DNA of 64,000 bases from an uncultured Acidobacteriota bacterium (GCA_963757735.1 CAVWST010000041.1:133932-197931); one strand, 5' to 3'; counted from the stretch's first letter, positions 45,836-63,496 are shown. A program made the numbers and translations. The notes: generated by a model from the sequence alone, not told the origin.

Positions 45836-46804
45836 TCAGAGAATTGATTGCGGCGTTTCCGCAACCGCCGCGGCGCGCGTGCGCGACACGCGGCGATACC
45901 ACCACGCAGTCAATAACGGTGTCAGGATGGCGGTCACAATCACCGAAGCGGTGACCTGAATCGTCGCTGCAGCGGCTACTGGTGCAAACGAGGTGTCAGC
46001 TAACGCCACCGCTTGCGGCACCGCCGCCGAGTTCCCAGCCGTGCTCGACGCCGCCGCACCCGCCACACCCGAACCGCCGAGCAGCCGATCAATCGCGATG
46101 CACACAGCACCCGTCACTATCACCACGGTCAGGCCGAGGACCACACCCGGAAGCCCTGCAGTCACGACCGACGTCAGATTGATTGTCTGTCCCAGCGTAA
46201 ACGCCATGAACGGAACGATGATCGGCTCGTGCGACGCGAAGAACTCTTTCAACTCATCGTCGAGATTTCCGAGGATCGCGCCGACCACGATCGGTGCGAT
46301 CACTGACACCATCGTCAGCCATGGAATCACTGCCAGGCCCGTCCCCACGAAGATCAGCATCGTCAGAAACGGTCCGGTTTCGATGCTCTGCACCACATAG
46401 GTGCCGGAATCATCCTTGTCACCCATTACGCCTGTCAGGGCGAGGAACATGCCGCCATTGGTGTCGCTCATGGCAACCATCACCGCGAGGGTACTCAGTC
46501 CCAGGATGCTGCCCTCGAACAGGTGCGCGACGGCCAGCGCGAAGAGCGTGGCGGTGCCGACCTTGGCGGTGAGAAGACCGAACCCGCGCAGCAGCATCCG
46601 CGGCGCTGCACGCACTGTCATCTTCGTGCCGACCGTGAAGAGATACATCCCGAGCACGGTCGGATAGCCCACTCCGCTCAGCGCCTGCGTGAAGCCGCCA
46701 ATCTGCAGCAACCTCGGGAAGAAGGTGTTGATGACCATGCCGATGAAGAGCGGCACGACCATCAGTCCGCCGGGTACGCGAGTGACGAATCGATAGATTC
46801 TCAT
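45836..46804 (-). CDS. kdgT: 2-keto-3-deoxygluconate permease family transporter
   Basis: 322 aa: MRIYRFVTRVPGGLMVVPLFIGMVINTFFP..SDTNGGMFLAL..AAASSTAGNSAAVP.., typical of KdgT. Confidence 0.8.
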   Translation of the reverse strand: MRIYRFVTRVPGGLMVVPLFIGMVINTFFPRLLQIGGFTQALSGVGYPTVLGMYLFTVGTKMTVRAAPRMLLRGFGLLTAKVGTATLFALAVAHLFEGSILGLSTLAVMVAMSDTNGGMFLALTGVMGDKDDSGTYVVQSIETGPFLTMLIFVGTGLAVIPWLTMVSVIAPIVVGAILGNLDDELKEFFASHEPIIVPFMAFTLGQTINLTSVVTAGLPGVVLGLTVVIVTGAVCIAIDRLLGGSGVAGAAASSTAGNSAAVPQAVALADTSFAPVAAAATIQVTASVIVTAILTPLLTAWWYRRVSRTRAAAVAETPQSIL

Positions 46805-46840
46805 GGTGCGCTCAGCGATCTCCTGTGAGTCGGCGAGTGA

Positions 46841-47872
46841 CTACGGCTGTCGGGGCTGTGCCGCAGCGGGCACGATGGTCGCCGGCAGCGGCCAGTTGCC
46901 GTCGTACGGCGGCCAGTTGGGAACGGCGAGCTCCGGTGATGGATAGAACATGGCCGTGTAGATCGTCCGAATCTTCGCCTCGTCGATCACGAACCACTCG
47001 CTGAACACGTTTCGCGGGGTCGGCGATCCCGGCCGGCGAATGAACACAGCGTAGCCGAGTGCCACCTGCGCCTCTTCGTCCACCACCGGAATCCTTCGCG
47101 CAACGACCATCGACAGGTTGAAGTTGGCCAGCCCCGAGACGCAGTCGTTGTTTGCGTTCGCGGGTGGCGCGGCCTGCCCTGCCGGAGGATTCGCGGGCGC
47201 GTTCGGCGGCAAGAAGCGGCCTGCTGGTGCCGGCGATCCGTTCTCGACGCGTCCGCAGCCCGGATGCGTCATCGCAACCGAGTTGTCATGCGACGTGATC
47301 GCATCGAAGTAGCTGTTGACGATGCGGACGAGCGTGGCGCGATCCGACCGCTCGTTCACCGGGACGACGCGATCGGGCGGCGGGTTCTTCGACAGATAGT
47401 CCGGGTTGTGAAGATTGGCCGGAGGTCTCCCCGGCTGACGCGGGCCGTTCAAGCCGGGATCGTCGGCCCGCGCGAGGTACCACTCTGCTTCGGTCAGTCG
47501 ACGGCCTTCAACGCGCACACGGACGGTCACGATCGCGGTGCCGCCACTCTCCTCCACCGTGCCGTAGTACGCCGCCTGGCCGCTGACTGGATCGAGATAC
47601 CGACGCTGCACGGCGCCGAGGCCGGTGACCGTCTTCCAGACGCCATTGCCTGGCCGCACATTGATGGCGTTCTCGGTCTGCCGGAATCCGACCACGAGCG
47701 GGGCAGCTGCTGGATCGTGCTTGATCACGGCGTTCAAGTACTGATCGAGCATCGTGCGCAAACATGCGCGGTCGCATGCCTCCTGCGCCGAGGCGCTCAC
47801 CGTTCCCACTGCCATCATCATCACGCTGCAGACGATCCACCTGGCATATCGCGACATCGAGATCCTCCCCAT
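46841..47872 (-). CDS. Secreted hypothetical protein
   Basis: 343 aa with signal-like ARWIVCSVMMMAVGTVSASA and a Pro/Ala-rich internal linker. No family recognised. The start may be the ATG at 47857. Confidence 0.55.
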   Translation of the reverse strand: MGRISMSRYARWIVCSVMMMAVGTVSASAQEACDRACLRTMLDQYLNAVIKHDPAAAPLVVGFRQTENAINVRPGNGVWKTVTGLGAVQRRYLDPVSGQAAYYGTVEESGGTAIVTVRVRVEGRRLTEAEWYLARADDPGLNGPRQPGRPPANLHNPDYLSKNPPPDRVVPVNERSDRATLVRIVNSYFDAITSHDNSVAMTHPGCGRVENGSPAPAGRFLPPNAPANPPAGQAAPPANANNDCVSGLANFNLSMVVARRIPVVDEEAQVALGYAVFIRRPGSPTPRNVFSEWFVIDEAKIRTIYTAMFYPSPELAVPNWPPYDGNWPLPATIVPAAAQPRQP

Positions 47873-47951
47873 ATGACTCAGTCCGACTCAGCTCCCCGAG
47901 CCATCAAAGAAGTCGCGTAGACTCTCTCCCGAGTCGCCATCCGAATTCAAC

Positions 47952-48911
47952 ATGAGTTCACAACCAACCGTCCTCGTCACCCGCAAGCTTCCCGATGCCG
48001 TGGAGGCTCGCCTGCGTCGCGATTACGCCGCGCGCCTGAATCCTGATGATCGGCTCTACTCGCACGACGAGCTCATCGAACGCTCGCGCGGCGCTCAGGC
48101 GATCCTTCCGTGTCACACGGAGCATTTCACCGCGCAGGTTCTCGAGCGCCTGCCAGCGGACGTCAGGATCATCGCCAATTTCTCAGTCGGCTACGACCAC
48201 GTCGACGTGAACGCTGCCCGCGCCAGAGGGATCGTGGTGACGAATACGCCAGACGTGTTGTCCGATGCGACCGCCGAACTGACGATGATGCTGATGATCG
48301 GTGCGGCTCGCCGTGCCGGCGAGGGTGAAAGGCTGGTGCGTGAGCGGCTGTGGAAAGACTGGAGCCCTGCGTTCATGGTGGGCACACAGGTCACGGGCAA
48401 ACGGTTGGGCATCCTCGGGATGGGTCGAGTGGGTCGCGTCGTGGCGCGGCGTGCGCGCGGGTTCGATATGCGGATTCACTATCACGACCTCCGCCGGCTC
48501 GAGGGCTCAGACGAGGGCGTCTATCACCAGACGTTCGAGGAGATGCTTCCTCATTGCGACTTCCTCAGCCTGCACTGCAACGTCACTCCCGACACACGGG
48601 GGGTGATGAACGCACAACGGTTCGCGCGGCTACCTGACGGCGCCATCCTGGTCAACGCCGCTCGCGGTGCGCTCGTGGACGATGATGCCCTTGTGGACGT
48701 GCTGAGGTCGGGAAAACTACGCGCGGCCGGAATCGACGCCTACAACAACGAGCCCAACGTCGATCCTCGGTTGACCGCATTGTCCAACACGTTTCTCATG
48801 CCCCACATCGGCAGCGCGACGAGCGAAACGCGCGATGCGATGGGCTTCCGCGCGCTCGACAATCTCGACGCGTTCTTCGCAGGACGCGAGCCGGGCGACC
48901 GGATCGCGTAG
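47952..48911 (+). CDS. D-isomer-specific 2-hydroxyacid dehydrogenase (glyoxylate/hydroxypyruvate reductase-like)
   Basis: 319 aa with NAD-binding GILGMGRVGRVVARRA and catalytic region ..LVNAARGALVD...PHIGSAT.. Confidence 0.85.
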   Translation: MSSQPTVLVTRKLPDAVEARLRRDYAARLNPDDRLYSHDELIERSRGAQAILPCHTEHFTAQVLERLPADVRIIANFSVGYDHVDVNAARARGIVVTNTPDVLSDATAELTMMLMIGAARRAGEGERLVRERLWKDWSPAFMVGTQVTGKRLGILGMGRVGRVVARRARGFDMRIHYHDLRRLEGSDEGVYHQTFEEMLPHCDFLSLHCNVTPDTRGVMNAQRFARLPDGAILVNAARGALVDDDALVDVLRSGKLRAAGIDAYNNEPNVDPRLTALSNTFLMPHIGSATSETRDAMGFRALDNLDAFFAGREPGDRIA

Positions 48912-48930
48912 ACGACGGCGCGGCACTCAC

Positions 48931-48968
48931 AAACGAAAGGGCCAGGATCTCTCCCGGCCTTTTCGTTT
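48931..48968 (+). terminator. Stem-loop (AAACGAAAGGGCC...GGCCTTTTCGTTT) followed by a T-rich tract
   Basis: Read directly, 20 nt downstream of the stop at 48909-48911. The outer arms match at 12 of 13 positions. Confidence 0.6.
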
Positions 48969-48980
48969 TGGAACACCGGT

Positions 48981-49043
48981 CAACTCCCAACGCCCAATCT
49001 CCAACTCCCAATTTTGGGAGTTGGAGTTGGAGGTTGGGAATTG
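48981..49043. repeat. Inverted pair of CCCAACT/AGTTGGG heptamer runs forming a long imperfect hairpin between convergent genes
   Basis: caactcc caacgcc caatctc caactcc caa tt ttgggag ttggagt tggaggt tgggaattg. The central 11 bp pair perfectly. Same heptamer family as 19174-19234. Confidence 0.7.
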
Positions 49044-49057
49044 ACGCTCAGTTGCAG

Positions 49058-52000
49058 TTAGTAGTTCACCGTGAAGTTCAGCCGCACGAACCGCGGATTG
49101 TAGATGCTGGTCGGCGTGCCCCAGCCGCTCGGCCGCGGAGCGTTGTCCGTGTTGTAGATGTAGGTGGTGTTGAAGCCGTCGCGTAGTTCGTGTTGAACAC
49201 ATTGTTCAGGTCCACACCGATGTCGGTGCGCGTGCGGCCGAACCGGACGATCTTCGCGAAGCGCATGTCGACCTGCGTCCGGCGCTCATCGGCGTAGATG
49301 CGGTGTCGTTGTGCACGAGCGGGATGGTGGTCGTCCCGTCGCGCGTCGCTCCCGGCGGCAGATGACCCAGCGCCGCGGCGATCACGGAGTTCGGCACCTG
49401 CCACGTGCGCCGAGGTTGCCGGCGTCCCGCCGAGCAGCTGCGATGGCTGCGAGCGCAGCACGGCGCTGACCAGCACGTCGATCTTCGGAATCGTGTAGCT
49501 CGCCAGACCGCGCGAACGTCGTCTGCCACGGCTCGACGTCGTCGCAGCCGCGCGGGTCGGGACCGCGAGTCGCACCGGTGCTGCGTTCACTTGGTTGTAC
49601 AGCGTCGTCCACGGCGCAGGTGTTGACGTGGCCTCGACCCGTGCTCGTGCCCGACCTGCGCGGTCAGGCCGTTGCGCAAGCGCGCGTTCACCGTCACGTC
49701 GAAACCATCCCACGCGCTGGCGCGCTCGGCGCCGAGGTCCGATCTCCTTCATCAGGAAGCGCTGCGGAGCGACCGCGTTCGCGGCCGCCGTCGGGACGTA
49801 CACCGTGACCGGATAGCCGCCGCCATCAGCCAGCCGCGAATCCTGCGGCGCCGTCAGCGTGTAGGTCTCGTAGAACGAGTTGATGTTGCCGCGGCGGGTC
49901 AGGTCGTCGGTGACGAAGAAGCCGTGGAACGATCGGTGCGTGTAGCTGAACTCCGCCGACACGCGCGGCATGATCTCCTGCTGCACGGTGACGGTCGTAC
50001 TGCGTGTCGCCCGGTCGCACGCCCCATCCGCTCAGCACGCCGGGATCGACCTGCGTCGCGGCGCCCAGCTTGCCGAAGTTCGGCGCGGTGCCAGTGGCGG
50101 CCGCGCAGTCGCCGTTGGCGTAGGGGTTCAGCAGGTCGCATCGACGACAGGTCGCCATTGCCGCCGGTCGCGATCGTTGCGTTCCAGCCGCGATTCGGGA
50201 CGTTGCGGACAACGGTGGCGCCGGGGTTCGTCGACGTATACGGTGAATCGTTCGCCGCGTACGCCAGGTACTTGCCGAAGTTGAACTTCACCGCCGTTTT
50301 GCCCGTTGCCGAAGACGTCATACGCGACACCAACGCGCGGCGTGAGGTCGTTGTACGCGTCCACGCCCGGTGTGCGCTGGAATCGTGATCGGCTGGGGAT
50401 TGAGGAACGACGTGTTGCGTCGTGCCGTTCAGTTCCGACCGGCGCGTAGCTCGACGCGCGGTCCCAACGCAGCGCGCCCTGCAGCGTGAGACGGCCGTGC
50501 GTCCAGCTGTCCTGCACGAAGATGCCGTGCGTCTTCGTGATCGTGCGGCGGCCGAAGTCGGGCAGGTAGTAGCTGACGGCGTTCGGCAGGCCCTGGTTGA
50601 AGCGGTAGCCAAGCTGCGTGCTCGTTCGCGACGTCCTTGTCGAGCAGGTCGAGCTGCCGGTACTGGTAGCCGACCTTCATGTTGTGCGCGCCGGTCACGT
50701 ACGCCGCCGACGCCGATAGTCATCGGTCTTGCCGGTCGCAGGGCCCCAGCTCTCGACGCCGCGATAGCGGTAGTTCGCCACCGGCGCGTACGGCAGGCCG
50801 GTCGCCGGGTTGACCGCGTTCGACTGTTCGGTGACCGGAATCAGGTTGGTGATGGCGTCCGGCGCTGGATGGCCGAAGATCGGCTGATAGCGGAACGCCG
50901 TGTAGCCAGCTTCGAACAGCAGCTGGTTCGACGCCGCCATCGTCCAGGTGCCCTGGTTCACGTAGAACGGCACGTCGAAGTAGCCGCGGCCCGCGGTGGA
51001 CGTGGCTTCCGGCGACATCTGCGTCGGCGCCGGGTTGTTGCCGAGACCGATCCAGTCCTCGCCGCGATTGTGGCAGCCCTCGGCGTCGACGCGTGAGCGG
51101 CGTGCCCTCGCAGCGATGCTGGTACTCGGAGTTGAACGCGGACGCGGTGCTTCCCGAACTGCCCCGTCATGCGGCCGATGACATCGTGCGGTCCTGCACA
51201 GACGCGCTTCGATCGGCGAGCCGACCCAGTCCCAGCGCGCCGGGTCGCCCGCGTTGGCGTTGGCGAGAATGCCTTCCATCGGCATCTGCCGTGCTCAGGT
51301 CGCGGTAGCTGCCGTAGAACCAGAGTCGATCGCGCTTGATCGGACCGCCGAGCGAGGCGCTCCAGTCGTACGCGTTGACGACGCCGGGGTTCGGCCGCAG
51401 GTTCGGGTTGAGCGCCTGGATCTCGTCGTCAGGTTGTCGCCGCTCGACCACTCGCCGGCGTTGCTGAAGAACGCGCTGCCGGAGAAGTTGTTGCCGCCCG
51501 AGCGCGGGACGATGTTCATCACCGGCCCGCCGATGTCGCTCTCTCCGAGGCCGCCGCCGACGGTGATGGCGACTTCCTCGGCGTTGACGGTGTCGTAGAC
51601 GTACGACGAGAAGCCGCCGCTGCGCGCCGCCGTCAACGGGAAGCCGTTGATCGCATAGCGGCCTTCGCCGGCGACGGACGTCGAGTTGATCGTGCTCGAG
51701 CGCGCGTTGAACGAGGTCATCGTCGGCGACATCGCGACGCCGGTGTCGCCGACGAATGATGCCGGGCGTGGCGTTGAGCAGCGCGCCGGCGGCGCGCGTC
51801 GCAGGAATCGTCTGAATGGTCTCGCTGTCGAGAACGATCTCGCGACGGGCGTTCTGCACGTCCACGACCGGCGACTCGCCCGTGACGGTGATCGTTTCCT
51901 CGAGGCCGCCGACCCGCATGTCGATGGGGATGGTCAGCGTCTGCGAGCCGGTGAGCTCGATGCCCTCGCGCTTGACGGTGTTGAAGCCGGGCAGCGTGAA

Positions 52001-52255
52001 CGTCAGCGTGTAGGTGCCAGGCCGCAGGTCGACGATGCGGTACTGGCCGGTGTCGTCGGTGACAGCCGTGCGGACTTTCTCGATGAGCGCAGGGCTCGCA
52101 GCTTCGACCGTCACGCCTGGCAGCACGCCGCCGGACGCGTCACGGACGGTTCCCGTGAGGGACGCCTGGGCAAATACGGATGCCGGAAGCAGGAGAACAA
52201 CGAGGAGCGTCAAACACTTCACTACTGTTCGCATACAGCGCGTCTTTCCCTTCAA
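49058..52255 (-). pseudogene. TonB-dependent receptor with N-terminal CarboxypepD_reg domain, roughly 10 or more frame breaks
   Basis: The N-terminus is in 51167..52255 (signal peptide, then SLTGTVRDASGGVLPGVTVEAASPALIEKVRTAVTDDTGQYRIVDLRPGTYTLTFTLPGFNTVKREGIEL..). Plug and barrel pieces alternate among all three minus frames (51295..51732, 50695..51285, 50128..50517, 49899..50723, 49078..49986). My translation of the 3' end gives ..GWGTPTSIYNPRFVRLNFTVNY, with the stop at 49058-49060. Confidence 0.85.
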
Positions 52256-52544
52256 GTTATGGACAAGAGCGGCATCGCGGCCGCGTTGCCACGTCAGACT
52301 CCGGCACTACCTATTTAAGGGCACTTGCATACAGGGCGCAGAAAATTATGCGGCGTGGAGCGAGAATGTCAAGGAATTCGTCGTGATTTATGATACCAAT
52401 GTCCCTCCGCGGCCCACTCTTGCATGCAGCCACACGCGGCGGAGGGCTCGGATCCAAAAACCTGGTCTGATTTCCGCGAGAATTTCAGGCGATTCGGTAC
52501 TCCACCAAGCTCGATCCAATGGGGTGAATTGAGGGGACTCTCAC

Positions 52545-53333
52545 ATGTCGAATCCGTCTGAGCTGCTGGCATCCGGCCCCGTCGCTCGCCCGAGCTCCTC
52601 GGACGTCGCCTCCCACGCGGCGCGCGCCCTGTTCAGCCTGCGCGAATCGCTGATGCGCGGCGAGTTCGCTCCCGGCGAGCGGATGTCCGAGCTGCCGCTC
52701 GTGGCGCGACTCGGTGTCTCGCGGACGCCCATTCGACTCGCACTCGAACGGCTCGCGCACATGGGTCTGCTCGACATCAGCGCGAGCGGCGGATTCACCG
52801 TGCGCGGATACAGCGCGGCAGAAGCCCTGGATGCAATAGAGATTCGCGGCGTGATTGAAGGCACGGCGGCGCGCCTTGCAGCGGAGCGGCTCGTCGATGT
52901 GTCAGAGGTCGAAACCTTGCGTCGTCTCGGTGGCGAGATGGATCGCCTCGAACGTCTCACGCTCGACTCATTCGCGCACTACATGGATCTCAACGAAGCG
53001 TTCCACCTTGCGATGATCGACCTCGCGAAGAGTGTAATGGTGAAGCGGGCGTTCGAGCAGGCCGTGTCACTGCCGTTTGCGTCACCGAGCGCGATGGTAT
53101 TCCCCACGTCAGGCCTCGCCGACGCAGACGAAGCGCTCGCCATCGCAAAGCAGCATCACCGCAGCATTATCGATGCGATTCAGACCAGACAGGGCACGCG
53201 CGCCGAACATCTCGCACGCGAGCACGCGTTCCTCGGTAGACGCGTCCTGGCGATGGCGTTGTCTGACAGCGAGACCCGCAGGAGGATCCCGGGGGCATCG
53301 CTCATTAATCCGTCCACACCGGCAAGAACCTGA
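52545..53333 (+). CDS. GntR/FadR-family transcriptional regulator (wHTH + FCD domain)
   Basis: 262 aa: ..LRESLMRGEFAPGERMSELPLVARLGVSRTPIRLALERLAHMGLL.., followed by a helical FCD-like C-terminus. Confidence 0.85.
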   Translation: MSNPSELLASGPVARPSSSDVASHAARALFSLRESLMRGEFAPGERMSELPLVARLGVSRTPIRLALERLAHMGLLDISASGGFTVRGYSAAEALDAIEIRGVIEGTAARLAAERLVDVSEVETLRRLGGEMDRLERLTLDSFAHYMDLNEAFHLAMIDLAKSVMVKRAFEQAVSLPFASPSAMVFPTSGLADADEALAIAKQHHRSIIDAIQTRQGTRAEHLAREHAFLGRRVLAMALSDSETRRRIPGASLINPSTPART

Positions 53334-53563
53334 CCTCGACAACTGGTGGAACGGATGGTGCCTGGAACCACGGTGGTGGTTTATCAGGATACGAACTATC
53401 GAGGGATAGCCGGGTCCTGATTGGCAACCAACCAGACCTCGACGATCTGCCGGGCTGCGGTGGCGCCGGCGCTGACTGGGACGACTGTATTTCGTCGATT
53501 CAGGTCCGACAGCGCTAGTATACTTTTTCCATTTCGTGGTGTCTAACGATCGAACGCCACGAG

Positions 53564-54721
53564 ATGGACTTCTCACACTTCGTTCAGCTGATCGCCATCG
53601 GTCTGCAGGCGCGCATTCCGATGCACATCACCGGTTTTCCCGGTGTCGGCAAGACTGAATTCACCAAGAGCCTCGAGGCGGGATTCACCCGCGCCGGCAT
53701 CAAGTGCAAGGTCTTCATCCTCGTGGGCTCGATCCGCGAGCCGCAGGACTTCGGCGGCTTTCCAGTGTCGACGCCTGACGGCGTGCGACTGCTGCCGATG
53801 GCGTGGGCACGCGATGCGAAGCGCCTTGCCGAGGAGGGCTATCTCGTCATCATCTTTCTCGACGAGCTCACAACAGTTCCTCCGACGACGCAGGCAGCGA
53901 TGCTGCGGCTGCTGACCGAGAACGTATGCGGTGAGTTGCAGTTGCCAGATTACGAGCCGGGCAAAGGGGGCGTGGTCTATTTGTGCGCAAGCAACGCCGT
54001 TGAATGGGCAGCCGGGGGACAAGAGATCCAGGCGCCGATGGCGAATCGTCTGTGGCATGGCGAGTTCCCCATGGACCACGAGACGTGGTGCGACATGATG
54101 GTGAGCGACTTCCCTGCTCCGACCAACCTGCCAGTGCTGTCGGATGACTACCTGCGGACGCACCATCATCGACAGCGTGCGTTGATCGCGGCGTATGTCA
54201 GAGCAGCGGGACGTGATTCGTGGCTGGCGCCACCTGACGATCCGGCGCGACGCAGTGGTCCATGGCCATCGGGTCGCACCTGGTATCTCGCGTCACGACT
54301 GCTTGCCGCGATCGAAGCCGTGTCTCCCGGCAATCGTGTGCTGCAAGGCGCCGCGCTCGCGGGACTCGTCGGCGATCAGGCGCTCCCCTTTCTCGAGTAT
54401 CGCGAGACGCTCAATCTGCCGGATCCTGAGGACATCCTGAAGGACCCCCGCGCTCTTGTATTGCCCGACCGAACCGATCGTGCATACGCGGTGTGCTACG
54501 CGCTCGTCGGTGCGGTCTTGAACAACAAGACGCCGGAACGGTGGCAGTCAGCGATGATCGCGCTCGGCGTGGCCAGTCGGAAGAACGCGGACATCCCGAC
54601 CGCTGCGGCACGCACGCTGTGCGACAAACGCAATCGCCCTGAAGGGGCGATCAAGTTGCCGGATGAGTGTCGGCCGTTCTACGAGCTGATGCAGGTGGCG
54701 AAGGTCATTCCACGAGAGTAA
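53564..54721 (+). CDS. MoxR/AAA_5-type ATPase with a ~200-aa helical C-terminal extension
   Basis: 385 aa. Walker A GFPGVGKT (53633-53656) and Walker B IIFLDELT. No N-terminal domain precedes the P-loop. Confidence 0.85.
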   Translation: MDFSHFVQLIAIGLQARIPMHITGFPGVGKTEFTKSLEAGFTRAGIKCKVFILVGSIREPQDFGGFPVSTPDGVRLLPMAWARDAKRLAEEGYLVIIFLDELTTVPPTTQAAMLRLLTENVCGELQLPDYEPGKGGVVYLCASNAVEWAAGGQEIQAPMANRLWHGEFPMDHETWCDMMVSDFPAPTNLPVLSDDYLRTHHHRQRALIAAYVRAAGRDSWLAPPDDPARRSGPWPSGRTWYLASRLLAAIEAVSPGNRVLQGAALAGLVGDQALPFLEYRETLNLPDPEDILKDPRALVLPDRTDRAYAVCYALVGAVLNNKTPERWQSAMIALGVASRKNADIPTAAARTLCDKRNRPEGAIKLPDECRPFYELMQVAKVIPRE

Positions 54722-54724
54722 TCC

Positions 54725-56029
54725 GTGCTCAGCAAGCTCACCGAATTGATTCGCGGAATGGATCGGCGCGGCGGGGGCTACTCGCGCGCGCTCGCGGCCG
54801 CGCGAGTGCGCGCCTCGTATCAACGCGCCTACTTCGCGCCCGCGCTATTCAGCCTGATTCCCGTCAAGACGGATCAGATCGCGAGCATGGCAGTCGATAC
54901 ACACTGGCGTCTCTACTACAACGACGCCTGGCTCGCGGCGCACAGCGTCGAAGAGAACGCCGCGGTGCTGATTCACGAGGTCAGTCACCTGCTCCGAGAG
55001 CACGAAGCTCGCAAGCAGGCGTCAGCCGCGAAGGACGTCACGCTCTGGAACACGGCCACCGACTGTGAGATCAACGACGACCTCGTGGGCGAAGGGCTGC
55101 CGCTTCCTGACGACCCTCCGCTGCCGGGTACGTTCGGACTGAACACCGGCGAGAACGCCGAGACTTACTACCGCCATTTGCATGTGGAGGGGTCAGACCC
55201 TTCGCCACAATCGGACACCGACTGCGGCTCTGGCGCGCACGGCGAACGACGACCGTGGGAGCTGCCCGCCGACGACGGCGGCGCGGGTGGCGTGCCGGGA
55301 GTGGATCCAGTCAAGGCGGAGCTCGTACGGCGCGACGTCGCTCAGCAGATCCTCGATCGCTCGGGCGATGCCGGCGATGCCCCACTGGGCTGGCGCCGAT
55401 GGGCGAACACCGTCCTGACGCCGAAGGTGGACTACATGGCCACCATCCGGCACGCCGTGCGCAAGGCGCTGCGCGAGAGCACGCTCGGACGATACGACCG
55501 CACATACAGCCGGCCGCATCGGCGGCAAGCCGCGTACGGCGAGTTCATCATGTCGTCATTTCACCAGCCGCGTCCGAGGCCCGGCTTTCTGATCGACACC
55601 TCGAGCTCGATGCAGGACACACAACTGGCGAGAGCGATTGCTGAACTCGGAGGACTTACGCGTCAGCTGGGTTACGGCACCGATGTCGTCGTGGCCTGCT
55701 GCGACGCAGCCGTACACAACGTGAAGAGAGCGTTCAACGCCTCGCAGGTGGAGTTGTACGGCGGGGGCGGCACAGACATCGGCGCCGGCCTTCGCTGGTT
55801 CACTGAACGCAGGAGCGGCCCGGTCGATCTCCTCGTTGTCGTCACCGACTGTCAGACACCGTGGCCGGACGAGACGCCACCCTTCCCTGTGATCACGATT
55901 CGCGTGGGCGATGGCCCACCGCCGCCCTGGGGCGATCGCGGAGCGAACAAAGTGATTACCATTGAAGACCCAACGCCGGTGAAGACCACGCCGACGTGGA
56001 ACGAGAGGCGCCAACGATGGCAGGTGTGA
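54725..56029 (+). CDS. HExxH metallopeptidase-like domain fused to a VWA-like domain (DUF2201_N + DUF2201 architecture by recollection)
   Basis: 434 aa. The GTG start is 3 nt after the AAA stop. HEVSH lies at 54974-54988 (VLIHEVSHLLREHEAR) and the MIDAS-like DTSSS at 55595-55609, followed by ..YGGGGTDIGAGL..VVVTDCQTPWP. Confidence 0.8.
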   Translation: MLSKLTELIRGMDRRGGGYSRALAAARVRASYQRAYFAPALFSLIPVKTDQIASMAVDTHWRLYYNDAWLAAHSVEENAAVLIHEVSHLLREHEARKQASAAKDVTLWNTATDCEINDDLVGEGLPLPDDPPLPGTFGLNTGENAETYYRHLHVEGSDPSPQSDTDCGSGAHGERRPWELPADDGGAGGVPGVDPVKAELVRRDVAQQILDRSGDAGDAPLGWRRWANTVLTPKVDYMATIRHAVRKALRESTLGRYDRTYSRPHRRQAAYGEFIMSSFHQPRPRPGFLIDTSSSMQDTQLARAIAELGGLTRQLGYGTDVVVACCDAAVHNVKRAFNASQVELYGGGGTDIGAGLRWFTERRSGPVDLLVVVTDCQTPWPDETPPFPVITIRVGDGPPPPWGDRGANKVITIEDPTPVKTTPTWNERRQRWQV

Positions 56030-56035
56030 CCTGAC

Positions 56036-56599
56036 ATGCGGCCGTGGGGCCGACAGGCACTGACGATTCCGCCCAACTCCAGAAATGCCTGGATCCATCT
56101 GGCGATCTGGGAGCTCTGGATGGGCATGATCGTGTGCGTCACGCTCGGGCTCGGCGGCGCTCTCATCGCCACGACTCCGAACCGCATCGTCGTCGTCGCA
56201 GATCTCACCAACTGCTACGCGCCTCCCCCGGTTGCGCTCCCGTGCGAGCGGATGGTGTATCGAGGGGGCGCACTGGACGCCGCGTTTACCTCACTGTGCG
56301 GCCTGATGCTGATTGGCGTCGCCCTGTGGTTTCTCTGGGAGCTGTGGAGCGCGGTCGAGCCGAAGCCGATCACAGACGACTTCCTGCGTCTGCTGCACGA
56401 CTCGTTCAGTCGTGACTGGCGCAATCCGTTCACCTGGCCGTGGGCGCGAGTGTTGTGGGCGTACGGCTTCACTGTTGTCGGCGTCGTGCTGACGGCTGGA
56501 GTCGGACTGATGCTCTGGATGTTGGTCGTCCCATCGGCCTCGACCAGCACACCCACTGTCAAGGTCAAGACGTCACAGAGCTACACGCTCGGCAAGTAG
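56036..56599 (+). CDS. Three-TM membrane protein, third gene of the AAA/VWA cassette
   Basis: 187 aa. The ATG is 6 nt after the upstream stop. Hydrophobic segments MGMIVCVTLGLGGALIA, LCGLMLIGVALWFLWELW and YGFTVVGVVLTAGVGLMLWMLVV. Confidence 0.6.
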   Translation: MRPWGRQALTIPPNSRNAWIHLAIWELWMGMIVCVTLGLGGALIATTPNRIVVVADLTNCYAPPPVALPCERMVYRGGALDAAFTSLCGLMLIGVALWFLWELWSAVEPKPITDDFLRLLHDSFSRDWRNPFTWPWARVLWAYGFTVVGVVLTAGVGLMLWMLVVPSASTSTPTVKVKTSQSYTLGK

Positions 56600-56642
56600 C
56601 CACTCGGAAAAGCGCCAGGCCTGTCGCGGTTTCATCGGCATC

Positions 56643-58205
56643 ATGAGGGAACTCGAAGGACTCATCGGTCTCGTCCTCGCGGCCGTTCTCGTGGCAGCGG
56701 CGGCACGGCGCGTCGGCGCACCCTATCCAGTCTTCCTCGCGCTGGGCGGTGCGCTGCTCGCTTTTCTCCCGGGCGCGCCCACGCTCATCGTCCCTCCCGA
56801 GCTTGCGTTGGCAATCTTCATCGCGCCAGTGCTGCTCGATGCCGCGTACGACGCATCGCCACGAGATCTCAGAGACAACTGGGCGCCCGTCCTCAGCCTC
56901 GTCGTCTTTGCAGTCGGGCTCACGACGATCGCCGTGGCTGTCGTCGTACATACGCTGATACCTGCGATGTCATGGGCGCCGGCGATCGCGCTCGGCGCCA
57001 TCGTCGCTCCACCTGACGCCGCCGCGGCAACGGCGGTGCTTCGCGGATTGCGACCGCCTCAGCGTCTGCTGACGATCCTCGAAGGCGAGAGCCTGCTGAA
57101 CGACGCGAGCGCGTTGCTGATCTATCGACTCGCGGTAGGCGCGGTCGCCGTCAATGGCTTCTCCATTCAGGCGGTCGCGCCCACATTCCTGTTCGCCGTC
57201 GCCGGCAGCGTCGTCGCAGGGCCAGCGCTTGGCTGGTTGTTCCTGCGCCTGATCGATCGGGTGCAGCACGTACCGACCGCGATCATCCTGCAGTTCGCCA
57301 CCACTTTCGGCGTGTGGATCTTCGCCGATCGGATTGGTCTGTCCGCCGTCCTCACCATGGTGTGTTATGCGGTGACGGTCGCGCGCAGCGCGCCCGAACG
57401 CACGCCCGCTCGGATTCGCATCCCGTCGTACGCCGTGTGGGAATCGGCGGTGTTCCTGCTGAACATCCTCGCCTTCATCTTCATCGGCTTGCAGATCCGC
57501 CCGATCATCGATCGCATCGAGCCCGGACTTCGCGGCCGATACTTCTTCGTCGCCGGTGCGGTACTCGTGACGGTGATCGTCGTCCGCATTGCCTGGCACA
57601 TGTCGTTCAACGCCGTCATCAGATGGCGCGACCGACGACACGGTTTCAATCCACCGCGTCCGATGCTACGGCCGACTGTCGGCAGTGGACTGGTGATCTC
57701 GTGGGCCGGCATGCGTGGCATCGTCTCGCTCGCTGCCGCGCTGGCGCTACCAGGAGCGTTTCCGTTTCGCGATTTGATTGTGCTGACGGCGTTCTCAGTG
57801 GTGGTCGGGACGCTGGTGATTCAGGGACTGACGCTCAAGGCGCTGTTGCGCGCGCTCAATCTGCAGGACGATGACCCCGTTGGCCGCGAACTCGCGTCGG
57901 CACGTGCGCGTGCGCTGAGCGCCGGGCTCACGAGCTTCGAGCGCGATCGGTCGCCGGTCGCCGACGCCGTCCGCGAGGAGTTCACCGCACATCTCGCTCC
58001 GGCTGATGCGAATCGGAACGGTGATGGACGGCATGCCGCGCACAGCGATATCCATCGCGGCGCCCTTCAGGCCGCGCGCCAGGCGGTTATCGACATGCGC
58101 GCCAACGACGAGATCGGCGACGATGCGTTTCACCAGATGGAAGAGGAATTGGATTGGCTGGAGATGGCGGGCGGCGGGAAAGAGGAGCCCGAATCGAGAG
58201 ACTAG
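56643..58205 (+). CDS. Na+/H+ antiporter (CPA1, NhaP type) with a cytosolic C-terminal domain
   Basis: 520 aa: ..LLTILEGESLLNDASALLIYRLAV.., multi-TM. Confidence 0.85.
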   Translation: MRELEGLIGLVLAAVLVAAAARRVGAPYPVFLALGGALLAFLPGAPTLIVPPELALAIFIAPVLLDAAYDASPRDLRDNWAPVLSLVVFAVGLTTIAVAVVVHTLIPAMSWAPAIALGAIVAPPDAAAATAVLRGLRPPQRLLTILEGESLLNDASALLIYRLAVGAVAVNGFSIQAVAPTFLFAVAGSVVAGPALGWLFLRLIDRVQHVPTAIILQFATTFGVWIFADRIGLSAVLTMVCYAVTVARSAPERTPARIRIPSYAVWESAVFLLNILAFIFIGLQIRPIIDRIEPGLRGRYFFVAGAVLVTVIVVRIAWHMSFNAVIRWRDRRHGFNPPRPMLRPTVGSGLVISWAGMRGIVSLAAALALPGAFPFRDLIVLTAFSVVVGTLVIQGLTLKALLRALNLQDDDPVGRELASARARALSAGLTSFERDRSPVADAVREEFTAHLAPADANRNGDGRHAAHSDIHRGALQAARQAVIDMRANDEIGDDAFHQMEEELDWLEMAGGGKEEPESRD

Positions 58206-59616: not shown

Positions 59617-59988
59617 ATGACCTCCCGATCGACGGAGCTGTTGCAAGGCACACTCGACCTTCTCATCCTCAAAGCGATCTCGCTTGGACCGTTGCACGGT
59701 TACGGCGTGCTGCTAAGGCTCCAGCAAATCTCCAACGACACACTGCAGATTCCGCAAGGCTCTCTGTACCCCGCCCTGTATCGCCTCGAACATCAGGGAC
59801 TCGTCACATTCGAGTGGGGCGAGTCCGACAACAAGCGGCAAGCCAAGTTCTACTCGCTGACCGCCGCCGGGCGAAGACGGCTGCGCGAGGAGACCGACTA
59901 CTGGGAGCGGTTGTCCGGCGCCATCGGACTGGTGCTGAAAACCGCACCAAGCGAATCTGTGAGGCCGACGTGGGTTCGAAAACGCTAG
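59617..59988 (+). CDS. PadR-family transcriptional regulator
   Basis: 123 aa: LLQGTLDLLILKAISLGPLHGYGVLLRLQQIS..GSLYPALYRLEHQGL.. Confidence 0.85.
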   Translation: MTSRSTELLQGTLDLLILKAISLGPLHGYGVLLRLQQISNDTLQIPQGSLYPALYRLEHQGLVTFEWGESDNKRQAKFYSLTAAGRRRLREETDYWERLSGAIGLVLKTAPSESVRPTWVRKR

Positions 59989-62656
59989 CGTCGCTCAGCT
60001 CATTCCTGCGCGCGTGGCTCGGGCGCTCGCGCATGGAGCACGACATGGACCGCGAGATGCGGTTCCACCTGGAGACTCGCGCGGCGGACCTCGAATCGCA
60101 GGGGATGTCGCGCGCGGATGCGGAACGACACGCGCGCCGGGAGTTCGGCGATGTCATCCGCTGGAAGGAGGCCGGTCGAGAGGCGCGCGGTCTTGCGGTC
60201 GTCGACGATCTTGGTGCCGACTTGCGCTACGCCGTTCGAACGATGCGGCGCTCGCCGGGTTTCACGGCCGCCGCAGTCCTCTCTCTCGCCGTCGGCATCG
60301 GCGCCAGTACGGCGATCTTTGGTCTCCTGGATCTGCTGCTGCTCAAACGTCTTCCCGTGCGCAACGTGCACGAGCTCGTGCACGTCACCACCGCCGGCGA
60401 GCGCGGCGACATGCATTCGGGATCGTCGAACTACCCGTGGTTTCAAAACGTGTCGTCGCGCACGGATCTGTTTTCCGACACGATGCTCGTCAGGCACGAC
60501 GTCTACAAGGTTGGCATTCACGGCAGCCTCGATCCGCTCACTGGCCAGCGCGTCACCACCAACTACCATGCGATGCTCGGCGTTCAGGCACGCCTGGGCC
60601 GCACGTTCACCGCTGCCGATCGCCCCGAGGCGGGTGCACCGCCGGTTGCCGTCATCAGCTACGCGCTCTGGCAGCGTCGCTTTGCCGGCTCGGCCGACGT
60701 CGATCGGGACCTCGATCACTGTCGACAAGCAGCCGTACACGATCGTCGGTGTGACCCCGCCTGAGTTCCGCGGCATCCTCGTCGGCTGGACGATGGACGT
60801 CACACTGCCGCTCGACACGTCCGAGTTCATGCAACCCGGCAACTGGTCCACGACGCCGCTGATCGCACGACTGAAACCGGGCGTGGACGCTCGACTCGCA
60901 CAGCATCAACTCGACCCGATGCTCGCCCGGTTCGTCGAGGCGAACAAGACAACCGAACGATTCCGGGCGCGCTACCTGCAGCGCGCGTACGTCACATCGG
61001 CAGCCACCGGAATCACCGACCTCCGCGCGCAGTTCTCGACTCCACTTCGGCTGCTGATGGTTGCAGTCGGCGTGCTGATGTTGATTGCCTGCGTCAATCT
61101 CGCCGGTCTCCTCGCTCGCGCGCAACGCGACGCGGCAACATGAGCTCGGGATGCGCCTGGCTCTGGGCGCGCGTCGCAGCCGAATCGTTCGTCAGTTGCT
61201 CACCGAAAGCACGGCGATCGCACTGCTCGGGGCAACACTGGGCGTGGTACTGGCGATCAGAGGCGGGAACGCGCTGGTCGGATTGCTGCCCGAATATTTC
61301 GGACCGTTGTCGATGCAACTCGTCGCGGACAGCCACGTGCTTGCGTTTGCGCTCGTGTCCACGATCGTCACGACGCTGCTGTTTGGTTCGATGCCGGCGT
61401 GGCAGGCGTCACAGATTGCGGTGCTGCCCGCACTGAATCGCTCCGGGTCACGTACGGCTACGACGCGGATGCGGACGGGCCGGGTGCTCGTGGTCGCGCA
61501 GTTTGCGCTGTCGTTCGTGCTCGTCGCGGGCGCATTCCTCTGTCCTGCGTACGATCGTGAATCTCGCAAAGGTCGACACCGGCTTCGAACGCGAACGGCT
61601 TCTCGTCGTGCGAATCGATCCCCAGGGAACTGATTACGAGAGAGAGCGACTGCGAGCAATGCAACGCGAGATGCTCGAGACGCTTGGCGGTGTCCCGGGC
61701 GTGCAGCACGTCACATTCGCGACGGGCACTCCGTTCAACGGCAACGTAGACGGGCGCCGCCTGTCGATCCCTGGCGTTGAACCGCGCGAACCGGATGACA
61801 CGATCATCCAGGTCAACCTGATCGCACCTGGCTACTTCGATGCGCTCCAAGTCCCACTCGTGAGCGGGCGCGCGATCGACGAGCGCGATCGCGAAAACAC
61901 TCGCCGCGTCGCCGTCGTCAGCGAGGCCTTCGCCCGTCGCTACTTCGGCGAGGCCCCCGCCGCTGTCGGCCGCACCTTCATGCATCAATCGCGGACCGAA
62001 GCCGATCCCGCACGAGATCGTGGGCGTCGCGCGCGACATCCGCTACCAGGATCTCCGCTCGTCCCTCGGAAAGGATCGCCTATCTGCCGTGGTTCCAAGC
62101 CGATGATGTGAGGTTGGCGCAGTTCGAGTTCATCCTTCGCACCGAGGGCGACCCTGCGAACTGGATCGACATCACGCGGAGTGCCATGCGTCAGCAGCGC
62201 CCTGACCTGCCTATTCTCGCCATCCAGACATTGAGCGGTGTGATCAACACCAGGCTGCTCAGTGAAAGGCTGCTCGCGACGCTCGGCACGTTCTTCGCCG
62301 CCGTCGCGCTCGCACTCGCGGCTGTAGGCGTTTACGGTCTACTGGCGAATCTCGTCGCCCGCCAGATTCCGGAGATTGCCGTACACATCGCACTGGGCGC
62401 TCGTCCGGGTGAGATGGTGTGGATGACGGTTCGTGAGAGCCTCGTGCTCGTGGCAACGGGAGCCGTGATCGGGATCGCGGGCGCCGCCGCAGGACTGCGC
62501 GTTCTTGAAGGCCTGCTTTTCGGTCTCTCGCCGACGGACATCGTCAACCTCGCTGTCGCCGCGCTGATTCTCGTGCTCGTGGCACTCGCGGCAGCGTTCG
62601 TACCTGCCTGGCGTGCGGCGACGGTGGATCCACTCGTCGCGCTTCGCGCCGAATAG
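59970..62656 (+). pseudogene. ADOP-type duplicated FtsX/MacB-like ABC permease, at least 5 frame breaks
   Basis: GTG 59970 overlaps the PadR 3' end. Fragments 59814..60764, 60118..61143, 61085..61633, 61503..62111 and 62108..62656 join as ..REMRFHLETRAADLESQGMS..LRYAVRTMRRSPGFTAAAVLSLAVGIGA..VGVTPPEFRG..LGMRLALGARRSRIVRQLLTES..IALGARPGEMVWMTVRESL..ATVDPLVALRAE. Confidence 0.8.
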
Positions 62657-62700
62657 CCACGCGCCTTTGCGGTGCGAGCAGTCAGCCATTAGGCTGAAGC

Positions 62701-63496
62701 GTGCCGTATCGAGTTGACCTTCGCAACGCCACCGACGATGTGCTCGATCGGCTCGTCGAACTCGGCGCCATCGATGCCGAGCGCTCAGACGATGGCGGCA
62801 TCGCGAGCACTGATCCAGGACAGCGTCGCGCCAGAGCACCTTGCACGCGCACTGGGCATCGATGGGTTCGCCGTTCCCGTGCCACCGTGCGCGATGCGGG
62901 ATCCGTCTGGATCCTCAGCCCTCGCCCGATTCGCGTCGGACGCATTCGGATTGTTCCGGCTCACATCGAAGCAGAGCCGGATGCTCTCAGGTTGGTTGAT
63001 GCCGCCGCGTTCGGCACCGGCCTGCATCCCACAACGGCACTTTGTCTCGAAGCACTCGATGAAGCCGTGTCGATCGTTGCGGCCCGACGCCGTGCTCGAC
63101 GTGGGAACAGGGTCGGGCGTGCTCGCGCTCGCTGCGCTCATGCTGGGCGTGCCGCGAGCGGTCGGCGTCGACATCGACGACGAAGCGCTGCGCGTCGCCG
63201 CCGAGAACGCGCGGATCAACGCTATGAGCGAACGCCTGAAATTGCGATATGGCGGGCCTGACACAGTGAGCGGCACATGGCCGCTTGTCCTGGCCAACGT
63301 GCTCGCCGCTCCACTCATCGAGATGGCACCGACGCTCGTGCGCCGCGTCGGTCATCACGGCCAACTGGTGCTCTCTGGAATTCCCGCCTCTGTCGAACAG
63401 AACGTCGACGAAGCATACCGTCGTCTGGGGATGCAACGCGTTCGCACCACATCACGTGCCGGCTGGGTTGCGCTTGTGATGCGGGCTTCCTGGTGA
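62701..63496 (+). pseudogene. prmA: PrmA-like SAM-dependent methyltransferase (ribosomal protein L11 methyltransferase family), about 3 frame breaks
   Basis: Fragments 62701..63261 (..IVPAHIEAEPDALRLVDAAAFGTGLHPTTALCLEAL..) and 62714..63496 (..VLDVGTGSGVLALAAL..GVDIDDEALRVAAENA..LVLANVLAAPL..LVLSGI..). Confidence 0.7.

Follow-up and report, generated by a model that had tools for sequence, protein, structure and literature searches.

A chromosomal Acidobacteriota cassette of a predicted MoxR-class AAA+ ATPase, a zincin-like VWA protein and a clade-specific membrane protein

The DNA analysed here, hereafter the window, is a 64-kb stretch (64 000 nucleotides, GCA_963757735.1 CAVWST010000041.1:133932-197931, positions counted from its first letter) from an uncultured soil Acidobacteriota bacterium, and it contains a compact cassette of three genes on the plus strand. 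Gene 1 (53564-54721) encodes a predicted AAA+ ATPase of 385 amino acids, gene 2 (54725-56029) a protein of 434 amino acids with a zincin-like domain and a VWA domain carrying a metal ion-dependent adhesion site (MIDAS), and gene 3 (56036-56599) a protein of 187 amino acids with three transmembrane (TM) segments. All three run in the same direction, with gaps of 3 nt between genes 1 and 2 and 6 nt between genes 2 and 3. An original prediction, made from the sequence alone, had described these open reading frames (ORFs), their spacing, the motifs GFPGVGKT, Walker B, HExxH and DTSSS and a less GC-rich spacer ahead of gene 1; the ORFs and spacing were found at the coordinates given, recomputed coordinates agreed with the motif positions, and the spacer (53334-53563) has 57% GC versus 63.8% for the window. 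What that prediction overlooked is that genes 1 and 2 are an already recognised module, known as DUF2201_N/DUF2201, as the gp24/gp25 genes of phage N4 and as a gene pair of jumbo phages. Hence, the cassette is best described as a chromosomal, membrane-partnered version of a known module of AAA ATPase and peptidase-VWA protein, with nothing categorically new in it.

In sequence records, identical proteins are named 'hypothetical protein', 'MoxR-like ATPase' or 'predicted metal-dependent peptidase'. Ratios of nonsynonymous to synonymous substitution rates (dN/dS) were obtained by comparison with eight related loci, for which dS was ~1 and thus saturated; the values were 0.04-0.10, 0.09-0.20 and 0.15-0.39 for genes 1, 2 and 3, respectively. 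Since dN/dS is low at dS ~1, all three genes are regarded as real and under purifying selection.

The alignment of gene 1 with its homologues contains the motifs expected of an active ATPase. G24, P26, G27, G29 and K30 are invariant in Walker A (GFPGVGKT, residues 24-31; 53633-53656, plus strand), as are D100 and E101 of Walker B (in FLDELT; 53861-53866, plus strand) and, downstream of Walker B, the sensor-1 residue N144 and a candidate arginine finger, R162. With Walker A, Walker B, sensor 1 and a candidate arginine finger all present, gene 1 is predicted to be catalytically intact. None of the Pfam AAA thresholds is reached by its product (AAA_5 gives 19.2 bits versus a cut-off of 22, and AAA_3 no match); homologues at 38-45% identity pass the AAA_5 and AAA_3 thresholds, and thus gene 1 is taken to be a divergent MoxR/AAA_5 relative.

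The AlphaFold2 model of gene 1 has a mean predicted local distance difference test score (pLDDT) of 89.4, and it contains a helix-2 beta-hairpin insert (strands 66-70 and 73-77 inside helix 2) as well as a pre-sensor-1 beta-hairpin at residues 121-134, before strand 4. Upon comparison of this model with the PDB by Foldseek, NorQ (including NorQ-NorD VWA complexes), the MoxR protein CHU_0153 (2r44) and CbbQ came out best, followed by MCM and dynein; TM-scores to NorQ/CbbQ were just 0.3-0.46. Single-sequence PDB searches with genes 1 and 2 gave nothing useful, the matches coming from profile searches, in which the AAA modules of midasin were the top match of gene 1 (E 6e-9). Gene 1 also matches phrog_1297 (E 3e-36), and its C-terminal helical domain of ~190 amino acids is common to full-length phage ATPases, including a 'Gp24-like' protein (BFVD, TM-score <=0.73). 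The ATV p618 MoxR protein is a further structural match. Judged from the model and these searches, gene 1 encodes a divergent MoxR/AAA_5-class AAA+ ATPase of the helix-2-insert/pre-sensor-1-hairpin class that resembles N4 gp24. The MoxR-type label given by the original prediction therefore holds by fold and by more distant homologues, not by the Pfam AAA thresholds.

Gene 2 is covered by two Pfam families, DUF2201_N (PF13203) at residues 19-270 (115.1 bits, cut-off 23.2, E 6e-33) and DUF2201 (PF09967) at residues 289-404 (59.9 bits, cut-off 26.4, E 3e-16); it matches phrog_1314 (E 3e-45), and the VWA_CoxE profile reaches 25.9 bits versus a threshold of 26.4. By its domains, its motifs and the AAA gene upstream, gene 2 is assigned to the DUF2201_N plus DUF2201 proteins, i.e. 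the COG3864-type 'predicted metal-dependent peptidase' family. Conservation was read from an alignment of 41 diverse members with 25-73% identity. The putative zinc-site helix, HEVSHLLREH (54974-55003, plus strand), has conserved columns at H84, E85, H88 and H93 in an M48-like HExxHxxxxH arrangement, with its HEVSH core at 54974-54988 (plus strand). H84, H88, H93, D113, N117 and the arginine pair R266/R267 are invariant, and at least 90% of the sequences keep E85, the catalytic glutamate of HExxH. In the VWA domain, the MIDAS motif DTSSS (D291-x-S293-x-S295; 55595-55609, plus strand) is completed by T350, which lies in GGGGTD, and by D375, and all five of these residues are invariant in 41 of 41 sequences.

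A profile built from the same 41 sequences matched the M48 peptidase 3c37 in the PDB (E 2.4e-4) over ~55 residues, namely the HExxH helix and the strand preceding it, which is the element that gene 2 has in common with the M48 peptidases BepA, HtpX, Ste24 and Oma1. Weaker matches of this profile were to BepA and Ste24, and the VWA domains of BchD, Ro60 and integrin were matched as well. Gene 2 is thus assigned, from sequence and profile, a zincin-type HExxH domain with an M48-like helix fused to a VWA domain with a complete MIDAS. In this respect the domain evidence agrees with what had been predicted for the cassette as a whole, i.e. a MoxR-class AAA ATPase, an HExxH zincin with a VWA/MIDAS domain, and a protein with three TM segments.

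Some DUF2201 proteins (P0404, P0417, P0434 and P0462) are 790-842 amino acids long. They carry inteins, consisting of an Intein_splicing/Hint domain and a LAGLIDADG homing endonuclease, directly after the HExxH helix, at a point equivalent to about residues 100-104 of gene 2 (about 55022-55036). A fusion of AAA and DUF2201 domains ('Rosetta stone') was considered and rejected, as the long family members carry these inteins and no AAA domains. The inteins probably explain the labels 'HNH endonuclease' and 'homing endonuclease' of phrog_1314 and of many phage records. Intein insertion is typical of functionally critical sites. Because E85 is kept in at least 90% of sequences and the inteins sit directly after HExxH, it appears that catalysis, beyond metal binding, matters in this family.

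Gene 3 has, by hydropathy, three TM segments, starting near residues 19, 78 and 139. Loop 1, between the first and second segments, holds an invariant pair of cysteines, and loop 2, between the second and third, a conserved acidic and aromatic stretch, EPKPITDDFLRLL...WPW, in which D115 is invariant and D114 nearly so. The protein matches nothing in Pfam, PADLOC, PHROG or the PDB, profile search included, and only at chance level in NCBIfam; 1,259 homologues were found, and the best 120 of these are 66-95% identical, none with a Pfam domain. Genomic context was compared among 14 Acidobacteriota loci, 70 actinobacterial loci (L018-L087) and 80 loci on viral contigs. A homologue of gene 3 is present in 14 of the 14 Acidobacteriota loci and in none of the 150 others. 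By a crude ORF test, some TM protein lies directly downstream of the ATPase and VWA pair in 11-13 of 13 loci of the clade, in 10 of 56 actinobacterial and in 3 of 67 viral loci. Gene 3 is therefore specific to the Vicinamibacterales/Acidobacteriota clade, and the question raised earlier, whether the membrane protein always accompanies the pair, is answered in the negative: it is confined to the Acidobacteriota.

In most relatives the annotated gene 3 has 195 amino acids, begins with 'MAGVTLPDMRPW' and overlaps gene 2 at its end. The upstream ATG of the window, at 56018, reads 'MAGVT*' owing to a 5-nt difference from the relatives (region 56018-56038), so gene 3 of the window must start at the ATG at 56036, equivalent to the conserved Met9. 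The shorter length of 187 amino acids is also annotated in several relatives, so that the whole family may in fact start at Met9.

The pair formed by genes 1 and 2 is far more widespread than its membrane partner. The gene 2 family comprises 10,072 clusters at 50% identity with E<=1e-3, and 1,458 with E<=1e-30. In 86 of 87 cellular loci the gene directly upstream of the gene 2 homologue encodes an AAA homologue, and 72 of 80 viral loci have one on the same strand no more than ~3 kb away; because of this regularity the pairing of the ATPase with the peptidase-VWA protein is regarded as obligate. Sequences from soil metagenomes and metagenome-assembled genomes make up the close relatives of the three proteins (at least 66-75% identity), and where a source name is given it is Vicinamibacterales; the next-nearest cellular relatives among the matches listed are from Actinobacteria, at about 40-44% identity. 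Among cultured phages, 257 records hold the ATPase and 588 the VWA/peptidase protein, mostly N4-like Schitoviridae, rV5-like phages and jumbo phages, and 67 plasmid records, nearly all from Actinobacteria, carry the pair.

Two phage systems are the closest known counterparts. N4 gp24 (AAA) and gp25 (vWFA) belong to the same two families as genes 1 and 2, in the same order and orientation (phrog_1297 and phrog_1314); both count among the 14 genes that form the core of N4-like phages, are transcribed in the middle phase and have no function assigned in the literature, and gp029 and gp031 of the Vibrio N4-like phage SBP1 match genes 1 and 2. Phage pairs of the N4 type have ~25% identity to the cassette and lie among middle and replication genes, and their two members are often separated by a small gene or an HNH endonuclease; unlike the cassette, the phage pairs have neither a three-TM partner nor the upstream element GGTGTCTAA described below. 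Group 2.2 jumbo phages carry a MoxR and metallopeptidase-vWA 'chaperone-cochaperone' pair, described only computationally, and in phages, by Iyer et al. 2021 (PMC7824862) with a proposed role in virion assembly or processing. Its architecture, a MoxR gene together with a vWA gene having an N-terminal metallopeptidase, is identical to that of genes 1 and 2, whereas the cassette is chromosomal, belongs to Acidobacteriota and has a membrane partner. Literature searches on DUF2201, on COG3864 and on MoxR in N4-like/Schitoviridae phages found no functional study.

The nearest ATPase outside the Vicinamibacterales clade, with 58% identity, is P0301, on a contig on which all genes are co-directional and the ATPase is followed by a DUF2201 gene, several small ORFs and a Ku gene. 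This phage-like layout hints at a phage origin of the cellular cassette; moreover, ATPases from viral contigs score better against gene 1 (E about 1e-62 to 1e-64) than actinobacterial ones (~1e-45), and taken with P0301 this makes phage origin plausible. The same two observations, and the membership of the pair among the core genes of N4-like phages, would suit a reading in which the cassette is a remnant or cargo of a phage or mobile element that performs a phage task, such as virion morphogenesis or host takeover, and has no role in the cell. We consider this reading very unlikely. No integrase, terminase, capsid or other phage gene is located near the cassette in the window flanks or in the relatives, the window has no tRNA, and searches for flanking repeats or mobile-element ends gave only short, chance-level matches. 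In addition, none of the best 80 relatives on viral contigs exceeds 41% identity, the TM partner is absent from phages, and purifying selection acts on all three genes across an order-level clade.

In Actinobacteria (L018-L087), the pair carries other conserved genes upstream, encoding ankyrin-repeat proteins, LRR_6 or LRV/HEAT repeat proteins and an SDR-like protein; the ankyrin-repeat proteins have ~600 and the SDR-like protein ~480 amino acids (Streptomyces, Actinoplanes and related genera). Examples of this arrangement are L023 (1490-7149) and L006 (292-4626). The putative clients or adaptors joined to the core pair thus seem to vary with the lineage. On actinobacterial plasmids, as in Rhodococcus pBD2 (L168, 8929-12914) and Mycobacterium pMYCSM03 (L169, 7817-12920), downstream of the VWA-like gene come a small ORF, a gene for a hypothetical protein of ~400 amino acids and a second AAA ATPase gene. 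Nearby genes encode a member of the PAPS reductase family, ParA, DUF4192 and a methyltransferase of very large size; this looks like a region for plasmid establishment or accessory functions.

Gene conservation among the 14 Acidobacteriota loci is limited to the three cassette genes, and no flanking gene family occurs in more than four loci. Within this lineage they form one conserved unit, as had been predicted. The prediction had also raised a conflict or signalling function and a setting in defence islands or prophages. Kaur et al. 2020 (PMC7159879) described ternary vWA-MoxR-VMAP systems as NTP-dependent conflict systems, occasionally with metallopeptidase effector domains, and these likewise combine a MoxR-class ATPase with a vWA protein. 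By analogy, the cassette could be an anti-phage or other conflict system of this type, in which the peptidase would act as effector and the TM protein as a membrane effector or sensor. The family is abundant on phages and plasmids, the genes flanking the cassette vary between genomes, and in one relative a KAP NTPase gene adjoins the cassette. Compared with the vWA-MoxR-VMAP systems, however, the cassette lacks a VMAP third component and an effector array, such genes are likewise absent from the flanks, and gene 1 has no bpMoxR match. In PADLOC-DB 2.0, genes 2 and 3 have no match above the reporting limit and gene 1 a single one, no better than chance (E 0.043); recurrent defence genes are lacking from the flanks of the window and of its relatives, and neither a defence island nor a prophage was found in the neighbourhoods surveyed. 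Furthermore, the gene 1 product is 84-94% identical between genomes despite saturated synonymous sites, unlike typical fast-evolving, patchy defence genes. Such conservation speaks against a fast-evolving conflict system and points to a role in cell housekeeping or regulation, not in an arms race, and we hold an anti-phage or other conflict role to be improbable.

Upstream of gene 1, 17 nt ahead of its ATG, there is a conserved element, GGTGTCTAA (53538-53546, plus strand). The window contains a single copy, with 0.07 occurrences expected. The exact 9-mer is found once at the equivalent position in 10 Acidobacteriota loci (L001 8765-8773, L002 8815-8823, L003 8734-8742, L008 1902-1910, L010 4823-4831, L011 4818-4826, L012 2910-2918, L015 4784-4792, L016 790-798 and L017 4735-4743), and GGTGTCTAT takes its place in one further locus. 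A CCGTTT-like block precedes GGTGTCTAA by ~13 nt in most relatives, and the resulting conserved two-block element (53498-53546 in the window) recurs in nearly all loci of the Acidobacteriota, 10-108 nt ahead of the AAA gene and within otherwise unrelated DNA. From this pattern of conservation, GGTGTCTAA is probably the promoter or operator of the cassette itself. Its -10-like part presumably resembles 'GTCTAA' motifs of the extracytoplasmic function (ECF) type. An ECF sigma gene lies directly upstream in L003, and in L007 the motif precedes a PadR gene; an Rfam scan of 52000-57500 returned nothing credible. With its own upstream element and three closely spaced genes, we read the cassette as a self-contained operon and as the clade-specific version of the N4 gp24/gp25-type module.

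The flanks in the window hold genes of everyday metabolism, transport and regulation: a KdgT 2-keto-3-deoxygluconate permease (45836-46804), a D-2-hydroxyacid dehydrogenase (47952-48911), a TonB-type receptor, a GntR/FCD regulator (52545-53333), an Na+/H+ antiporter, and a PadR regulator with a MacB-type permease. The GntR gene does precede the cassette in the window, as had been pointed out, and is unlinked to it in relatives: it is two genes away in L001 and absent elsewhere, so that GntR was rejected as regulator of the cassette and more plausibly regulates the adjoining sugar-acid uptake locus (45836-53333). The Na+/H+ antiporter was likewise rejected as a fourth cassette gene, being present in the window only. 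Two of the neighbours are split over several frames, a TonB-dependent-receptor-like gene with an N-terminal CarboxypepD_reg domain (49078-52255, minus strand) and the MacB/FtsX-type permease downstream of PadR (59814-63496, plus strand); the same receptor is also fragmented in L001 and L002, and the cassette genes are intact in the window. These split genes are either pseudogenes or the result of indel errors typical of long-read metagenome assemblies.

The function of genes 1 and 2 may be approached through the characterised pairs of MoxR and VWA proteins. In NorQ-NorD, CbbQ-CbbO, RavA-ViaA, CoxD-CoxE and BchI-BchD, an AAA protein is likewise accompanied by a partner from the adjacent gene with a complete MIDAS, and NorQ, CbbQ and MoxR are the nearest AAA folds to gene 1. 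In NorQ-NorD, the MoxR hexamer grips the VWA protein by means of a finger in the AAA pore and its C-terminus, ATP hydrolysis remodels the VWA protein, and carboxylates of the client are required. By analogy, the cassette probably has this grip-and-remodel mechanism in common with them. Three differences stand out: the VWA partners in pairs of the NorQ-NorD type have no zincin domain, whereas gene 2 has one; each of these pairs is tied to a specific enzyme operon, and the cassette is not; and the C-terminal helical domain of gene 1 (~190 amino acids) is unrelated to proteins of the NorQ/CbbQ type.

Based on NorQ-NorD and the other MoxR-VWA pairs, we propose a model of ATP-coupled proteolysis, to which we give somewhat less than an even chance. 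A hexamer of the gene 1 ATPase would grip gene 2 via its VWA domain, and the MIDAS metal would bind a carboxylate or acidic residue of the client. ATP hydrolysis would then remodel the VWA protein, the client or both, and this remodelling would either hand the client over to the M48-like zinc peptidase on the same chain as the VWA domain or activate that peptidase. Such a machine would amount to an ATP-dependent metalloprotease made of two chains and relying on an adaptor, akin in function to a split FtsH. The three-TM protein of the Vicinamibacterales would either tether the machine to the inner membrane or be the client itself, in which case D114/D115 of loop 2 are candidate MIDAS ligands. 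The parallel with FtsH is a functional one, an AAA motor together with a zinc peptidase at the membrane; in the cassette, in contrast, AAA and peptidase would be in separate chains bridged by the VWA domain, and the AAA domain belongs to a different clade. Midasin/Rea1 has the AAA_5-plus-MIDAS logic in common with genes 1 and 2, and differs in being one giant polypeptide with six AAA modules and no peptidase, acting in ribosome biogenesis. The 'ATP-gated proteolytic switch at the membrane' of the original prediction is thus a reasonable proposal.

Several points weigh against this model. The Pfam M48 profile (PF01435) gives gene 2 only 14.4 bits versus a threshold of 20.3. The AlphaFold2 model of gene 2, computed from 61 close relatives (75-95% identity), has a pLDDT of 46.6, and Foldseek with this low-confidence model returned generic alpha/beta matches (E>=0.018); because of that pLDDT, profile matches are the sole basis for the peptidase fold. 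The HExxH domain could serve just for self-processing or metal binding. As most family members, on phages, on plasmids and in Actinobacteria, are without a TM partner, the core machine needs no membrane. Loop 2 of gene 3 is probably cytoplasmic, by a topology read from hydropathy and the cysteine pair only. Proteolysis, complex formation and membrane association are all predicted features of the model.

Seen against these points, the cassette might instead encode a classical maturation chaperone of the MoxR-VWA kind, in which a client is remodelled uncut, for metal insertion or complex assembly, the HExxH domain is a metal-binding or self-processing module, and gene 3 is a membrane client or assembly platform. 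All characterised MoxR-VWA pairs (NorQD, CbbQO, CoxDE and the chelatases) are indeed remodelling or insertion chaperones, the VWA_CoxE profile comes close to its threshold on gene 2, the ATV p618 MoxR protein is among the structural matches of gene 1, and a chaperone role in virion assembly has been proposed for the phage pairs (PMC7824862). This reading is weakened by the lack of a linked client: neither a metalloenzyme gene nor any other candidate client gene is conserved beside the pair in the 14 loci of the clade or in the actinobacterial and viral loci, and the uniform link to a known pathway that the prediction had envisaged as a counter-finding did not appear, the trio alone being conserved among the 14 loci. 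Moreover, the catalytic glutamate is kept in at least 90% of the 41 sequences, beyond what metal binding alone would need. We therefore regard a pure chaperone as unlikely.

ATP-coupled proteolysis remains our tentative preference, and an evolutionary extension of it can be drawn. A phage machine of the gp24/gp25 type would have been captured by an ancestor of the Vicinamibacterales, would have gained the three-TM partner and a promoter of its own, and would have turned into a strongly conserved module of the cell, a split, VWA-bridged, FtsH-like membrane metalloprotease that cleaves its TM partner or is gated by it. We consider this full scenario rather unlikely.

The pair of AAA and DUF2201 proteins is among the larger two-gene modules lacking functional study, with >10,000 clusters of the VWA/peptidase protein at 50% identity and a spread over phages and plasmids. 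In Acidobacteriota the module is stably housed on the chromosome, under strong purifying selection, and has a fixed membrane partner, itself conserved, which makes this partner a concrete candidate for a client or anchor. As a system of three proteins, it is suited to asking whether MoxR-VWA machines drive proteolysis. If the proposed mechanism is true, the function of MoxR-VWA machines would be widened from chaperoning and metal insertion to ATP-coupled cleavage, and a biochemical activity would be assigned to gp24 and gp25 among the core genes of N4-like phages.

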